From Nitrosomonas europaea (lineage in GTDB: Bacteria; Pseudomonadota; Gammaproteobacteria; Burkholderiales; Nitrosomonadaceae), in NCBI RefSeq assembly GCF_900167395.1, contig NZ_FUWK01000066.1, forward strand, positions 1 to 6,805: DNA of 6,805 bases, read 5' to 3'. Shown piece by piece: positions 2,208 to 6,805 of the stretch. The notes beneath the pieces are model-generated. The model was not told the origin of the DNA and ran no database searches. It saw only the letters and a program-made list of their open reading frames with translations. Each line of letters starts with the position of its first letter. Within the stretch, counting starts at the first letter, position 1. Position numbers and translations under genes: made by a program.

Positions 2208-2606
2208 GTTTCGATGGGTTCCGGGGAGTGAAATCCCCCAGTCGTGATCCAACCACAACGAGGTTGGCGCGTATCCAAACGGCGCAAGGTTGATCAATGG
2301 GTGTCCAGAGGGAGAGCGAATTCTCCTTCTTGGTCATGGGGGTGTCGGGGGAGCTTGAAGGCTCCTCTGAATGGTGACGCAACGACCAGACGTTATACCG
2401 GCGCTGAAGGCTCAATGCCAGCATGCGCCGGTATGCAGGGGGTATCCAACAGGGGGCGGCACGCTCCCTTTGGCAAGAGAGTGCTGTATTACAGCACACA
2501 TCTTGCAGTCAGCCTTACGGGATCGGCATCAGAGGGATGAACCCTATCTGCACCGGATCATGACCCATCGATGGAAACTAACCGAATGGGCCGATATCAA
2601 TTCCGG
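2208..2606. other. Non-coding, hairpin-dense block; candidate structured RNA or long structured fic leader (strand undetermined)
   Basis: The three overlapping ORFs here have R/C/W/G-rich, non-protein-like translations. The block holds many local stems. There is a perfect 10-bp inverted repeat ATACCGGCGC/GCGCCGGTAT (2395-2404 / 2425-2434, 20-nt loop). Others: GTGCTGT-att-ACAGCAC (2481-2497), AGAGGGAGA/TCTCCTTCT (2307-2330), CCAACC/GGTTGG (2249-2267), GGAGC/GCTCC (2350-2365), CCAAcAGGGGG/CTCCCTTTGG (2446-2473) and the palindrome CCATCGATGG (2565-2574). I recognised no known RNA family. Confidence 0.35.
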
Positions 2607-2899
2607 TTAGGTTTTTGTAATCAGATAAGTCCCTGCACCCACCATCAAGCAACCTGAAACCAGCCGGGCTTTATTCTCAATTGCCAGTTCTTTGCCCATC
2701 AGCATGATCTTCGTTGCGGTATAGGCATATACCAGCTTGATGCCACCAACCGTTACCGCCGTAATCAGCAAGATGGTCGATATATCCGGTAACGTCAGCG
2801 CAGATATATCGATAAATGCCGGAAATAGGCTCGCATAAAAAAATATCGCCTTAACGTCACCAAGCGTCACCACAAAACCTGCAAGGAAACTCGCGCATA
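2607..2899 (-). pseudogene. LysE/RhtB-family amino-acid exporter, C-terminal fragment (gene interrupted by IS630-family element)
   Basis: Minus-strand translation gives ..SGICASFLAGFVVTLGDVKAIFFYASLFPAFIDISALTLPDISTILLITAVTVGGIKLVYAYTATKI..LMVGAGTYLITKT*. It is hydrophobic and multi-TM, with the LysE-type central motif (F..Gf...l.[NPK-like]KAI.F..s..P.FI). The reading frame stays open up to the IS junction at 2899. The track ORF 2607-2873 is the part downstream of an internal GTG. Confidence 0.75.
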
Positions 2900-2932
2900 T
2901 TCCGCTGCTAGAGCATTTTTCTTCTAGTTGGA
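2900..2932 (+). repeat. IS630-family left terminal inverted repeat (IRL)
   Basis: TTCCGCTGCTAGAGCATTTTTCTTCTAGTTGGA pairs with the rc of 3925-3957, TTCCGGCGCTAGAGCGCTTCTCGTTTAGTTGGA. It is preceded by TA (2898-2899). Confidence 0.8.
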
Positions 2933-2988
2933 ATCATTGGGATTCCCCTGTGAGTTAAAATAAGAGAGGATAGGGGCGGAGGTGAGAG

Positions 2989-3933
2989 ATGCCGAAAGCT
3001 TATTCTGAGGATTTGCGCCGCCGGGTTGTGGCGGACACGGACAAGGGTCTGAGTATCAGGGCTGTGGCCAATAAATATTCAGTTAGCCCGTCATTTGTAT
3101 CGAAGATAACCTGCCTGTGGAGACAGGAAGGGAGCGTTTCCCCGCGCAGGATCGGGGGCTACCGGCGTCATGCGCTGGAAGCCCATGCTGCTGAAGTCAG
3201 GGGTAAGCTTCTGGAGGCAAGGGCATAACGCTTGCGCAGCTGCGCGATTGGATTGAAGAAGCTTTGGGGGTTCGTGTTCACATTCCCTCGGTTGACCGGT
3301 TTATCCGCTCGCTGGGATACAGTTATAAAAAAAACACTGCGGGCCAGCGAACAAGAACGTGCTGACGTGGCAGCGGCAAGGCTCGTCTGGCAGGACTGGC
3401 AAAAAACCTGCGACTGCGCGCGCCTGATCTTTCTCGATGAAACAGGAGCAAGCACAGACATGACGAGGCAGCATGGCCGCAGCCCTGTGGGAGAGCGATG
3501 CTATGACCATGCTTCCGGCGGTCACTGGAAAACCATGACTTTCGTTGCCGGACTGCATCTTGATGGTCTGCTTGCGCCGTGGTGTCTGGATGTTCCCATG
3601 AACGGCGCAGCTTTCCTGGCTTATGTGGAAACCCAGCTTTGCCCTGCACTCAAGCCAGGTGATATCGTCATCTGCGACAACCTGGGCAGCCATAAGGTTG
3701 CCGGTATCCGGGAGATGATCAAGGACAAAGGCGCAGAAATCCTTTATCTGCCGCCTTATTCTCCCGACCTCAACCCCATTGAGCAGGTCTTCTCCAAAAT
3801 CAAAACCCTCCTGCGTAAAGCCGCTGAACGATCCTTTGATGCTCTCTGGGCCGCCATCGGGCGCATCATTGAAACCATCCGGCCCCAGGAATGCCGCAAC
3901 TACTTCGCCAACTCCGGCTATGTGTCCAACTAA
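2989..3933 (+). pseudogene. IS630-family DDE (DD35E) transposase, reading frame broken twice (frame 1 -> 3 -> 1)
   Basis: Frame 1 (2989-3228): MPKAYSEDLRRRVVADTDKGLSIRAVANKYSVSPSFVSKI..GSVSPRRIGGYRR, the typical IS630 N-terminal HTH. Frame 3 (about 3222-3335): [37 protein letters not shown]. Frame 1 again (about 3328-3933): [55 protein letters not shown]. The catalytic D, D and E are present, with 35 residues between the second D and the E. The shifts fall at G3 (3221-3223) and A8 (3327-3334). Confidence 0.8.
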
Positions 3934-3957
3934 ACGAGAAGCGCTCTAGCGCCGGAA
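3925..3957 (+). repeat. IS630-family right terminal inverted repeat (IRR)
   Basis: TCCAACTAAACGAGAAGCGCTCTAGCGCCGGAA is the reverse complement partner of IRL (26/33). It is followed by TA (3958-3959) and contains the transposase stop TAA (3931-3933). Confidence 0.8.
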
Positions 3958-4262
3958 TATTTGCAGATCAACGTTTTTGCCCTGTTTCTGATCAAGCCAA
4001 TGCCGAACCCAATCAGGTAAATGCCTGCTGCGAATTTAATCACTAAAAAGAAGGTACCCATCATCTCCGACAGTGCCGTTAACCCCAGTATCGCCAGCAT
4101 TGCAAAAACCAGATCACCCAGCACGATCCCCATCGAAACAGCAGCCCCATTTGCAAAATTCATCGTGGCTGTACGAGTGATCACCAGGGCCACACTTGTG
4201 CTGGGAATGGCAGCAAGCATTATCATGATGGCGAAAAATGCCGCAGCGTCAAAAAAACTCAT
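3958..4262 (-). pseudogene. LysE/RhtB-family amino-acid exporter, N-terminal fragment
   Basis: MSFFDAAAFFAIMIMLAAIPSTSVALVITRTATMNFANGAAVSMGIVLGDLVFAMLAILGLTALSEMMGTFFLVIKFAAGIYLIGFGIGLIRNR.. has the typical LysE-family N-terminal half (P.S/G..... motif, three TM helices). AGGA lies about 8 nt upstream of the ATG at 4262. The track ORF (3930-4262) runs into the IS, and its last residues are IS-derived. Confidence 0.75.
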
Positions 4263-4369
4263 GGGGATTCCTGCAATATATCGGACTAGATTGATGTCAC
4301 GATGAGAAAAAACTTCATTTATTCTTTATGCTACCGTTGATTTCATGCTCAGGAAAACAATTGTGCCCT

Positions 4370-6007
4370 TTAGAGCCACAACCGGGTCTTGCCTTTGAAA
4401 GGTTTGTTAAAAAGCGGATTGACACCCACCCATTTCACCCAAGGCTTAACCTCGTGATAGCCGATTTTGGATAGGTGGATGGGACGGTGATTACCCATGA
4501 ACAAAATGGTATCAGAGGTGCGCCGTACCTCGTCTGCCGTCATCAGGCGACGCGGCGCATCCTGAATCGACCGGGTTGGTGCATCGAACAGACTGCGGCC
4601 AAGATTGTGATTGAGCGCCTTGATGGTGGATTCACCGAGCATATCTGAAATCAACTGGCAGGTCTTGTATGAGCGAACCCCCATGATGATCTTCACTTCT
4701 GTTTGAGAAAGCAACGTTTCCAGGCTTTCGCGCCCGTACACATGTGCCCATTGTTCCAGCTCCTGCACGATCAGCCACAGCTTGATCTTGAACTCCCGTG
4801 CCAATGTCAACAGCGAAGGTAAATCATTGATCTTTATATTAGTTATTTCATCGCACAGGAAGCAAACCGATTTTCCGTTCTGAAAGCGGATCAATTCTGT
4901 CAAAGCGCACCACGACAATAAACCCAGCCACGGGGCATAAACGGCCATGCGTGTCGGATCGGCGAGCAGATAAACCGTCATCTTCTTTTTCTTAAGATCA
5001 GCAAAGCGGAAATCGCAGGTAGAAGTGCACTCGGCCAGCTTCCCACTCGGAGAAAAAATTTCGAGCGGCTGGATGGCTCCTTCCCTGAACGACTCAATCT
5101 GCTTCTGATCGCCGCTATCGAATTTTGCCAGCAGATCCTTGGCCGATCTGGCCAGATCGCCATTCAGATGCGCAGAATACTGCGCATCCTGAAGCGCCTT
5201 GAGTAAAGCTTCCTTATCACTGAGCAAGCACAGTGCATCGGCCAATGTGGCGTGATTGCTGTTCGTCACCTGGTATACGAACGCAAATACCAGGAACTTG
5301 CGCGAACCGTTGCGGAAATACTGGTTCTCGCCCTGCTGGACCGGATCCTGGCAAAGCTGCTTGGCGATGCTTTGCGCATCGGATAAAAGCTGCGCATGCC
5401 TATCCGGATTATTCCAGCTGTCGATCAGAATCTGCAACGGATTGTATCTGGCCCCTGCTCCCAGGATATCCTGATACAAGCCACCCGGATTGACGCACAG
5501 GATCTCATGCTTGTAGCGCTTGCGCCGAAGCTCTGCGGTCATACAAGCCAGTGTTCCTTTAAGATCAGGAACGAACATGCTAATGGGATTGTGGCATAGC
5601 GCCGGTATTACGAATGTCACCGTCTTGCCACCCCCGGCAGGACTCAAAACCAACCCGGAAGATTCGATATCGACAAATACCGGTCTGTTCTCATGCACCC
5701 CGGCCAGAAAACCGCCACGCCTGTTATACAGGCCCATTTTCTCGATATCTCGCGATGAAGCCCAGGCTGCACTTCCGGAACGGTCAGTCGGCTTCATCGC
5801 ACGTTTGCGGAAAAATAATCTGATGAGATATAACAGGCTGTAAAGTACGCCTTTGATCAAGGTGAGAACGGCACCCAGCGCCAGAAAGACCGGAACAGCG
5901 AGCAGATCACTGTGCAGCCAATCCCGGGTCTCCCAGGCTCCCCAGCCGCACAGGCCACTCAGAACAAGAAGAACAAACGGATTAGTTATCTGATTACGCG
6001 GCTGCAC
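4370..6007 (-). CDS. Type IV coupling protein-like ATPase (VirD4/TraG/TrwB family), orphan
   Basis: 545-aa ORF. It has two N-terminal TM helices (FVLLVLSGLCGWGAW; AVPVFLALGAVLTLIKGVLYSLLYLI) and the juxtamembrane SGSAAWASSRDIEKMGL (compare the GSARWA motif of VirD4/TraG). Walker A is SPAGGGKT (nt 5621-5644) and Walker B is CFLCDE (nt 4847-4864). Also T4CP-typical: LWLIVQELEQWAHVYG and the C-terminal LMTADEVRR..ILFMGNHRPIHLSKIGYH. The longest-frame start is GTG (6007-6005), 3 nt after the upstream stop; the next in-frame Met is at residue 70, after the TM region. Confidence 0.85.
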   Translation of the reverse strand: MQPRNQITNPFVLLVLSGLCGWGAWETRDWLHSDLLAVPVFLALGAVLTLIKGVLYSLLYLIRLFFRKRAMKPTDRSGSAAWASSRDIEKMGLYNRRGGFLAGVHENRPVFVDIESSGLVLSPAGGGKTVTFVIPALCHNPISMFVPDLKGTLACMTAELRRKRYKHEILCVNPGGLYQDILGAGARYNPLQILIDSWNNPDRHAQLLSDAQSIAKQLCQDPVQQGENQYFRNGSRKFLVFAFVYQVTNSNHATLADALCLLSDKEALLKALQDAQYSAHLNGDLARSAKDLLAKFDSGDQKQIESFREGAIQPLEIFSPSGKLAECTSTCDFRFADLKKKKMTVYLLADPTRMAVYAPWLGLLSWCALTELIRFQNGKSVCFLCDEITNIKINDLPSLLTLAREFKIKLWLIVQELEQWAHVYGRESLETLLSQTEVKIIMGVRSYKTCQLISDMLGESTIKALNHNLGRSLFDAPTRSIQDAPRRLMTADEVRRTSDTILFMGNHRPIHLSKIGYHEVKPWVKWVGVNPLFNKPFKGKTRLWL

Positions 6008-6010
6008 AGA

Positions 6011-6475
6011 TTATCGTGCCCTGATAATGTGCAACGGATCGACGATCACTGAATGATTGCCGCTTGCTTTGCCGGTTTCGATGATTTTTGCAACCCCCTG
6101 TCCCCGGTTGCCGCGTGTGGCAGAAATATGAAAGGGCGCGGCATACGTGTTCTCATCAACGGCAATACGAATTTCACCGGAAACGCCTTGCGGCGCTTCT
6201 CCCTCATAAAAGTTGATGGCAATCACCACTGGGCGCAAATCAAGCGGTACGTCGAAACTGATAGTCTCATAGCCGTTCGTCGGCTGCGGCGAATTGCGGT
6301 AATCCTTCCAGTAACGCCCATGCGTCGTAACCATGCGTCCGAAATAGATAACCTCCGCACCCGGCAAGGGACGCGCATAAATGTCCAGATCGCATAAAGC
6401 GCATTGCCAGGAGATGCCAATCTTCACATTCTCCGCACGGACGATTTGCCTTTGCGGTAACGCCATCTTGCTCAC
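6011..6475 (-). CDS. Hypothetical 154-aa cytoplasmic beta-rich protein, tentatively TerD-like fold; translationally coupled to the T4CP-like gene
   Basis: The ORF has a GTG at 6475 and an ATG three codons in (6466-6464). There is no signal peptide or TM segment. Its pattern VKIGISWQ..CDLDIYA..VIYFGR..HGRY..YETISFDVPLDLRPVVIAINFY..VSGEIRIAV parallels the TerD-family layout (VGLGWD..DLDASA..FIFYNN..DGSV..DDE.L.I.L..VDKIIFVV.I..GAFIRL). It lacks the canonical GDN.TG.G.GDDE Ca-binding residues. The fold call is from memory, not a search. Confidence 0.6.
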   Translation of the reverse strand: MSKMALPQRQIVRAENVKIGISWQCALCDLDIYARPLPGAEVIYFGRMVTTHGRYWKDYRNSPQPTNGYETISFDVPLDLRPVVIAINFYEGEAPQGVSGEIRIAVDENTYAAPFHISATRGNRGQGVAKIIETGKASGNHSVIVDPLHIIRAR

Positions 6476-6524
6476 TGGGCGTTCGAAGATGGATTGTTTA
6501 TTCTCTATCTGTTTGGTCCCGCAT

Positions 6525-6805
6525 TGTGATGGTGTATTGTATGATTTGCTACCGACACAGGAGGAATTATGGGACAGATATTACACGGGAGCGCCCGCAC
6601 GACAGCGGCGGTGCGTCGAGCGATACAACATAGTGAAGAGAGCCTGAATGTGCTGGCCAGGCGCTACGCCATCAATCCCAAGACGGTGGCGAAATGGAAG
6701 AAGCGCAACTTTACGCACGATGCCAGGATGGGTCCGAAAGAGCCGCGTTCCACGGTTCTGACACCAGAGCAGGAAGCCGCTTGCGTAGCCTTCCGCAAAC
6801 ATACG
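6525..6805 (+). mobile_element. IS481-family insertion sequence, left end (continues beyond window end)
   Basis: An IS481-type transposase gene starts at 6569. The upstream sequence TGTGATGGTGTATTGTATG.. (from 6525) resembles the TGT-initiated IRL of IS481-family elements. The boundary is tentative because the partner IR is outside the window. Confidence 0.45.
6569..6805 (+). CDS. IS481-family transposase, 5' partial
   Basis: Absent from the ORF track because it runs off the window. AGGAGG (6559-6564) precedes the ATG at 6569. Translation: MGQILHGSARTTAAVRRAIQHSEESLNVLARRYAINPKTVAKWKKRNFTHDARMGPKEPRSTVLTPEQEAACVAFRKHT.., the characteristic IS481-family N-terminus (HG.A.TT...R..IQ.S.ES...LA.RY.IN.KTV.KW.KR). 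Confidence 0.85.
   Translation, partial: MGQILHGSARTTAAVRRAIQHSEESLNVLARRYAINPKTVAKWKKRNFTHDARMGPKEPRSTVLTPEQEAACVAFRKHT

Follow-up and report, generated by a model that had tools for sequence, protein, structure and literature searches.

The stretch of DNA considered here (the window, 6,805 nucleotides of contig NZ_FUWK01000066.1) comes from the nitrifier Nitrosomonas europaea and is the exact reverse complement of the chromosome of strain ATCC 19718 (AL954747.1) from about 281,229 to 288,033. It contains an intact gene for a type IV coupling protein (T4CP) of 545 amino acids (aa) and, directly upstream of it, an open reading frame (ORF) of 154 aa. Around these lie two pieces of a gene for a LysE-family exporter, a gene for a Fic-domain protein, a structured element of about 225 nucleotides (nt), here called ncE, and several insertion sequences (IS), whole or in part. 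The initial annotation, made from the sequence of the window, saw in the two ORFs a stand-alone cassette in which a coupling ATPase lacking a type IV secretion system (T4SS) is paired with a small TerD-like protein.

The coupling protein gene and the split gene upstream of it

Both ORFs lie where they were first placed. The stop codon TAA of the 154-aa ORF (6013-6011) and the start codon GTG of the T4CP gene (6007-6005) are separated by a gap of 3 nt. The 545-aa product is, judged by its sequence, unambiguously a coupling protein of the VirD4/TraG type, and on this point Pfam and motif evidence agree with the initial annotation. It scores 155.5 bits with T4SS-DNA_transf (PF02534; E=2.8e-45, cut-off 20.1), 63.4 bits with TrwB_AAD_bind (PF10412; cut-off 20.5) and 82.4 bits with TraG-D_C (PF12696; cut-off 22). 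Two transmembrane (TM) helices are predicted at the N-terminus, with hydrophobic segments at about residues 10-25 and 35-66, and the motifs GSAAWAS, SPAGGGKT (Walker A) and FLCDE (Walker B) are all present. Residues A124, G125, G127, K128 and E387 are invariant among 32 homologues, and D386 is nearly so. The two TM helices, the Walker A and B motifs, an all-alpha domain and the TraG-D_C region are shared with the canonical T4CPs (VirD4, IncP TraG, TrwB and Cag-beta), and the closest solved structure is that of Cag-beta from H. pylori (8dol, E=3.8e-25). In contrast to these canonical proteins, the T4CP studied here is never found beside VirB or Trb genes in the loci examined.

According to NCBIfam, the protein is not an equivalog of any named subfamily (IncP TraG, VirD4, TraD and others). 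The best score with the T4CP models of this collection is 117.8 bits, against a cut-off of 674, and all scores fall far below the respective cut-offs. Because none exceeds 118 bits where 250-1221 would be needed, the protein is assigned to a separate clade. No close relative exists among 72,556 plasmids, the best being 30.6% identical, and five of the seven plasmid records that match are typed as mobilizable. The PADLOC-DB v2 collection of defence systems returned for the T4CP P-loop-level matches alone (E at least 7e-4).

The 154-aa ORF, by comparison with related loci, is not a gene of its own. In contigs with a T4CP 97% identical to that of the window, the gene directly upstream encodes 432 aa and is preceded by genes for 351 and 120 aa; the same 120/351/432-aa layout is found upstream in a relative whose T4CP is 80% identical. 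These genes are referred to below, in the order of transcription, as A, B and C. By blastn, positions 3948-6507 of the window are collinear with a contig of the 97% group, and the match ends at 6507, within the 432-aa gene. The GTG read as the start of the 154-aa ORF is an internal valine codon in a conserved ...ERPVSK... stretch. In AL954747.1, A (120 aa), B (351 aa) and the T4CP gene are intact, while the two halves of C flank an IS481-family element, which interrupts the gene precisely between profile positions 269 and 270; the copy in the window comprises positions 270-433. GenBank lists the halves as two hypothetical proteins of 270 and 151 aa, and an intact 432-aa gene C is present in another N. 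europaea strain. The 154-aa ORF is therefore a dead 3' fragment of gene C, which was split by an IS481-family insertion. What holds of the proposed partner is that the sequence upstream of the T4CP gene is co-conserved and tightly spaced; what does not hold is its reading as a separate gene of 154 aa. The fragment itself has no match in Pfam, NCBIfam or PADLOC, and a word-index search for its homologues gave a single partial relative; the family surfaced once the truncation had been recognized.

Full-length C carries the N-terminal Sec-type signal peptide MNKNTLLLLGLLFMTLMVAPVAFA followed by RD, which is kept in 23 homologues. It is predicted to be a secreted, Sec-exported protein and not, as had been supposed from the fragment, a cytoplasmic one. 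An AlphaFold model of the full-length protein, with a predicted local distance difference test score (pLDDT) of 78, has an N-terminal domain, encoded outside the window, that resembles von Willebrand factor A (vWA) domains; Foldseek matches it to 4fx5 (E=1.5e-6, probability 1.0), ITIH1, the Sec23/24 trunk and integrin I domains. The fold is thus that of vWA proteins such as 4fx5, the Sec23/24 trunk and integrin I, but the metal ion-dependent adhesion site motif (MIDAS, D-x-S-x-S) is absent: the conserved first strand, (V/I)A(V/I/L)SPY, has no aspartate, and C shows A-V-S-P-Y where these proteins have the metal-binding D-x-S-x-S.

The C-terminal domain, modelled separately (pLDDT 90, predicted template modelling score 0.87), is a beta-sandwich for which Foldseek found no significant relative in the PDB (best E at least 3.3e-3 and TM-score at most 0.40, for the EbpB pilin and TTHA1873). 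Its similar size and a superficial 'G-I-S-W ... D-L-D' pattern recall TerD-domain proteins, from which it differs in being the C-terminus of a secreted protein instead of a cytoplasmic stand-alone domain. The proposed TerD identity did not survive closer inspection: Pfam TerD matches neither the 154-aa ORF (E<=0.1) nor any of 25 family members (E<=1), and no TerD entry is found among the best 50 Foldseek matches of the pLDDT-90 model. At 50% identity (E<=1e-3), members of the large C family, which has no annotation, fall into 920 clusters; among them are B-C fusion proteins of approximately 780 aa (P0154 and P0190, about 785 aa).

The A-B-C-T4CP operon and its islands

With a T4CP profile, 62 loci were retrieved from species-representative genomes; the operon counts reported here are for 71 T4CP-centred loci. 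Iterated hidden Markov model searches of the latter detected gene C in 52, A in 49 and B in 48 loci. In about 50 of the 71, the T4CP gene is the last of a conserved four-gene operon, A-B-C-T4CP, in which B, C and the T4CP gene adjoin one another on the same strand; this operon replaces the two-gene cassette of the initial annotation. Besides Nitrosomonas, which provides the closest loci, the hosts include a Burkholderiales metagenome-assembled genome (MAG), Nitrospira, Micavibrio, Hyphomonadaceae, Maricaulis, Alcanivorax, Alteromonadaceae, Rhodobacteraceae and a Melainabacteria MAG. The spacing between C and the T4CP gene is 3-13 nt, and the order B-C-T4CP remains fixed as T4CP identity falls from 97% to about 41%, across phyla. 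In a metagenome scan centred on C, the three genes B, C and T4CP occurred together in five of six informative loci. A is a small soluble protein of about 120 aa, and B a membrane protein of about 350 aa with four TM segments and coiled-coil N- and C-terminal regions. Neither of these two nor C has a match in Pfam or NCBIfam, and profile searches of all three against PDB sequences gave nothing significant. A homologue search with a joined B+C query returned C homologues only.

The operon is found on islands. A large serine recombinase cluster (median 527 aa) is represented in 57 related loci, and its small partner gene in 31. A relaxase (PF03432, MobA/VirD2-type) is found in five loci and a MobC/NikA-like protein in three, most of the 10-kb flanks being too short to judge; some related loci also have ArdC and DUF3768 genes. 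The recombinase occupies one end of the island, and ncE and the relaxase the opposite end. A-B-C-T4CP forms the constant backbone, while the known defence systems (Gabija-like, Lamassu/ABC-3C-like, SIR2, restriction-modification and HerA systems) are variable cargo. The neighbourhood survey that the initial annotation had called for finds full-length C and the T4CP co-conserved without T4SS genes, with defence systems nearby as changing cargo and with a recombinase in addition.

Between the serine recombinase and gene A, each lineage has its own large protein of repeat or effector-like type: a Sel1/TPR protein of 1270 aa in L001 (2402-6214), an Ank/TPR protein of 509 aa in L005 (4969-6498), a CHAT protein of 1091 aa in L006 (1651-4926), and a 686-aa protein together with a pentapeptide protein in L008 (4264-6324). 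The Sel1 protein of N. europaea measures 1032 aa, compared with 1270 aa in L001, and an IS lies directly beside its gene.

The observation that the window contains no relaxase, VirB4 or VirB11 gene is confirmed, and none of these genes lies within 10 kb on either side in N. europaea; nor is there a large serine recombinase within 10 kb of the module in this organism. The separation of this T4CP from any T4SS extends to the family, as no mating-pore (T4SS) genes are found within 10 kb in about 70 related loci. In L044, where the stretch from MobC to the recombinase spans about 17.5 kb, no ORF of VirB4 size is present. A census of the 45 largest neighbour proteins likewise showed restriction, helicase, CHAT and NACHT families and no VirB4-type family among the 25 families listed of the 78 matched.

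B-C and the T4CP also occur apart from each other. In distant members of the C family, a B homologue is still encoded upstream, but T4CP, relaxase and ncE are absent from the vicinity. Of such T4CP-less pairs (L087, L088, L089 and L092), some lie near TIR and CHAT genes, an extracellular contractile injection system, an AAA+/S8 peptidase pair or a methylase/Fic pair, and B-C may be an independent and widespread envelope module. Conversely, in ten loci of Rhodobacteraceae and Ponticaulis (L043, L047, L054-L058, L061, L062 and L069) T4CPs of the same clade (38-45% identity) are accompanied by the recombinase, and in most of them by ncE too; the relaxase is also kept by distant T4CPs of the clade. 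The pairs that take the place of B and C in these loci are not homologous to them (hhalign probabilities below 2% for c9/c15 and c57/c58) but have a like architecture, namely a coiled-coil multi-TM protein followed by a secreted or anchored protein. A 100% hhalign match of 'B vs C' was rejected as an artefact of stop-to-stop segments drawn over fused or overlapping ORFs. By this distribution, the T4CP is tied to the transfer backbone, and B-C represents an exchangeable envelope pair that is more widespread. The like architecture of the replacement pairs suggests that the T4CP needs such a pair.

The structured element ncE and the eroded surroundings

The element ncE was detected by nhmmer in 43 of 72 sequences, the window included, and among them are Rhodobacteraceae loci whose T4CPs lack B and C. 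Its identity between Nitrosomonas and Nitrospira loci reaches about 85%. An alignment of 30 sequences supports 40 base pairs, in which 94.7% of cells are standard pairs as compared with 40-49% in slid controls; compensatory changes affect 27 of the 40 pairs (7-15 in slid controls), and none of 500 shuffles reaches the observed value. Folding energies are -39.8 kcal/mol for the + strand of the window and -26.5 kcal/mol for its complement, and the window copy folded as single-stranded DNA (ssDNA) has a z-score of -5.3. Neither Rfam families nor tRNAs were detected in the window, and a dedicated comparison of ncE with Rfam gave no match at gathering thresholds and noise only (E>3) under permissive filters. 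A blastn search for ncE among plasmids had no match, as had a megablast of positions 4300-6805 against plasmids and E. coli genomes.

The 3' end of the element (2474-2506) is a covarying hairpin of 16 bp with an insertion-tolerant loop, and it ends in an invariant CTTGC. Beyond this motif conservation stops, save for a weak CTTA about 7 nt further on. In all five loci with a relaxase gene, this gene is located upstream of ncE on the same strand. For relaxases of the MOBP type, the nick consensus is (C/T)ATCCTG(C/T) and the origin of transfer (oriT) has an inverted repeat 5' of the nick motif (PMC3772185). As in the oriTs of MOBP and MOBQ systems, ncE shows a covarying hairpin followed by a short invariant motif, an abrupt end of conservation, and co-orientation with the relaxase gene. 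It differs from them in being much longer, in having more helices and in placing CTTGC within the hairpin arm. The element may be an oriT or a new non-coding RNA (ncRNA) of the island family. Three narrower identifications were rejected. A strict MOBP nick consensus is not found in the hairpin, where CTTGC alone is invariant. A host ncRNA gene serving as integration target does not fit the absence from Rfam or the position and orientation relative to B-C-T4CP, which vary between island types. A serine-recombinase att site at the terminal palindrome is contradicted by the retention of both arms in integrated copies, by loop insertions of 20-25 nt and by the covariation of the stem.

A second, partial and inverted copy of the ncE 3' hairpin region occurs in AL954747.1 just beyond the window (L081, 13079-13163). 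It is flanked by IS3 and IS481-like copies, after which follow genes for an AAA_16-like protein, a small resolvase, ArdA and ParDE; this copy may belong to another decayed element abutting the first.

The features of the window are collected in Table 1. Three IS families (IS3, IS630 and IS481) are represented within its 6.8 kb, and four IS copies lie inside or adjoin it; an ArdA gene, a ParDE pair and a small resolvase are encountered further out. The IS481 end was identified by the IS481 transposase model NF033577 of NCBIfam (E=7.6e-9), and in the source genome the element encodes an rve-domain transposase. The IS630-family element has terminal inverted repeats of 41 nt and matches NF033545 (E=6e-38), its transposase being spread over two frames (2989-3228 and 3232-3933). 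The initial annotation was right in naming a LysE-family exporter on one side of the ORFs and an IS481 end on the other, but the LysE gene, unbroken in the relative L001, is interrupted here by the IS630-family insertion. This gene is either cargo or flank of the island. The Fic protein may belong to the cargo of the island, as a defence protein or a toxin, and a Fic gene also lies close to the B-C pair of L089.

Table 1. Position, strand and supporting evidence of the features found in the window
Feature	Position	Strand	Evidence or remark
Intact VirD4/TraG-type T4CP gene, 545 aa, GTG start	4370..6007	-	'TRAG protein' of N. europaea ATCC 19718 (GenBank CAD84157.1)
3' remnant of gene C, about codons 266-432 of 432	6011..6507	-	blastn breakpoint at 6507; alignment to 23 full-length homologues
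154-aa ORF, inside the gene C remnant	6011-6475	-	C-terminal beta-sandwich domain only; lacks signal peptide and vWA-like domain
IS481-family insertion sequence, left end; splits gene C	6508..6805	+	Transposase ATG at 6569; extends beyond the window
LysE-family exporter gene, 5' part	3930..4262	-	Pfam LysE E=2e-13; between T4CP gene and ncE
IS630-family insertion sequence; splits LysE gene	2912-3947	+	Gap relative to L001 (blastn)
LysE gene, 3' part	2607..2873	-	Pfam LysE positions 106-192; blastn to L001
ncE, structured element of about 225 nt	2291..2515	+	Between LysE fragment and Fic gene
Fic-domain protein, 506 aa	571-2091	-	PADLOC SoFic match, E=5e-21; divergent, adjoins the structured element
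IS3-family OrfA, N-terminal part	1-~340	-	Leaves the window at its left end

Interpretation of the region

We consider it fairly likely that this part of the N. europaea ATCC 19718 chromosome is the T4CP module of a decayed integrative mobilizable element (IME). The related loci are mobile-island neighbourhoods that include transfer genes, and no mating-pore genes are seen in them; for this reason the family is read as one of IMEs that carry their own T4CP, and it looks mobilizable, not conjugative. The fallback of the initial annotation, a decayed transfer element, thus comes closest to the evidence, apart from the word conjugative. In intact relatives, excision and integration would presumably be carried out by the large serine recombinase. 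The relaxase would nick at the structured element, if ncE has the role of an oriT, and the membrane-anchored T4CP would take up the relaxase-DNA complex and pass it on to a T4SS that a conjugative element in the same cell provides, DNA being assumed to flow in this direction. B, an inner-membrane protein with cytoplasmic coiled coils, may form with C an envelope partner complex of the T4CP, which perhaps docks or anchors the latter onto the foreign T4SS. The module is probably no longer functional in N. europaea, though the T4CP ORF is intact.

Comparable elements have been described. IMEs with a VirD4 and a relaxase of their own are known from streptococci, with a MobC relaxase (PMC5704250), and pAtCFBP4996c, a 9.3-kb plasmid of Agrobacterium, has genes for a MobQ relaxase, a mobilization protein and a T4CP and none for a mating pore. 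The islands share with such IMEs and small plasmids the absence of a T4SS beside the T4CP, a site-specific recombinase, cargo genes and, in some relatives, a relaxase with a MobC-like accessory protein; piracy of a helper T4SS is presumed for them too. They differ in the large serine recombinase and its occurrence in Proteobacteria and Nitrospirota, in a T4CP only about 30% identical to any plasmid T4CP, in its association with three conserved genes without Pfam match (A, B and C), and in the multi-hairpin element of about 225 nt where a short oriT would be expected; the islands are thus far putative mobilizable elements.

Several observations weigh against this interpretation. The relaxase was found in five loci only, most 10-kb flanks ending too early to reveal one, and both a relaxase and a large recombinase are absent from the 10 kb around the N. 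europaea module. The assignment of ncE as oriT derives from the layout alone, CTTGC lying inside a hairpin arm and matching the MOBP consensus loosely, and an RNA is equally possible. B-C pairs exist without T4CP, relaxase or ncE, in partly defence-like neighbourhoods, and the role of the pair need not be transfer. Finally, with 25 of 78 matched families listed in the Pfam census, a lone T4SS gene could have escaped it.

B and C, perhaps with A, could be an independent envelope module, active for instance in surface or entry exclusion, adhesion or signalling, that is merely joined to the T4CP gene in the operon of one lineage, the T4CP having no need of it. The T4CP-less pairs, the different upstream pairs of other T4CPs in the clade and the 920 clusters of the C family speak for such independence. 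We nonetheless hold it to be unlikely: the short spacing between C and the T4CP gene and the fixed gene order persist over a wide range of T4CP identity and across phyla, and the replacement pairs share the architecture of B-C, as if the T4CP needed a pair of this kind. In a variant that appears quite unlikely, one branch of B-C pairs captured the T4CP motor to build a T4SS-independent machine, for DNA exclusion or defence or for the export of DNA or protein, and ncE would be a new ncRNA or ssDNA signal and not a plain oriT.

The function first proposed for the cassette was defence. In its present form, this reading would make A-B-C-T4CP self-contained, with a membrane-anchored DNA-pump ATPase and its partners serving defence, DNA sensing or exclusion independently of conjugation. 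It would account for the lack of a T4SS near any locus, for a tightly packed operon conserved across phyla and for islands rich in defence systems, and distant B-C pairs do lie near TIR, CHAT, the AAA+/S8 peptidase pair and the methylase/Fic pair. It is distinctly unlikely all the same, as the PADLOC match is no better than noise, the partner as earlier described is not a gene, and A-B-C-T4CP is the constant part of islands whose known defence systems vary. Moreover, T4CPs of the same clade keep the relaxase, the oriT-like ncE and the recombinase even where unrelated genes stand in for B and C, which ties the T4CP to transfer functions. That the region is the remnant of a fully conjugative element (ICE, integrative and conjugative element), whose T4SS genes disappeared either from N. 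europaea or from the family as a whole, would suit the heavy erosion of the N. europaea region, with its four IS copies, ArdA, ParDE pair and small resolvase, but is highly improbable given the lack of mating-pore genes in some 70 related loci, the short stretch without a VirB4-sized ORF in L044, the distance to all plasmid T4CPs and the mobilizable type of most plasmid records matched.

Recognition of the split gene removes a false lead, as there is no two-gene system of TerD and T4CP, and the GenBank annotation of CAD84156.1 and of its 270-aa counterpart needs to be understood as describing the halves of one IS-disrupted gene. The decayed mobilizable element that we favour outlines a family of serine-recombinase islands in nitrifiers (Nitrosomonas and Nitrospira) and marine Proteobacteria, which carry defence cargo and a T4CP of their own. 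The A, B and C families joined to this T4CP, and the folded 225-nt element, are undescribed; families B and C, both large and without annotation, and the covarying element are concrete objects that can be put to the test. If the T4CP does need B and C, this would represent a new way for an island without a T4SS to plug into foreign conjugation machines.

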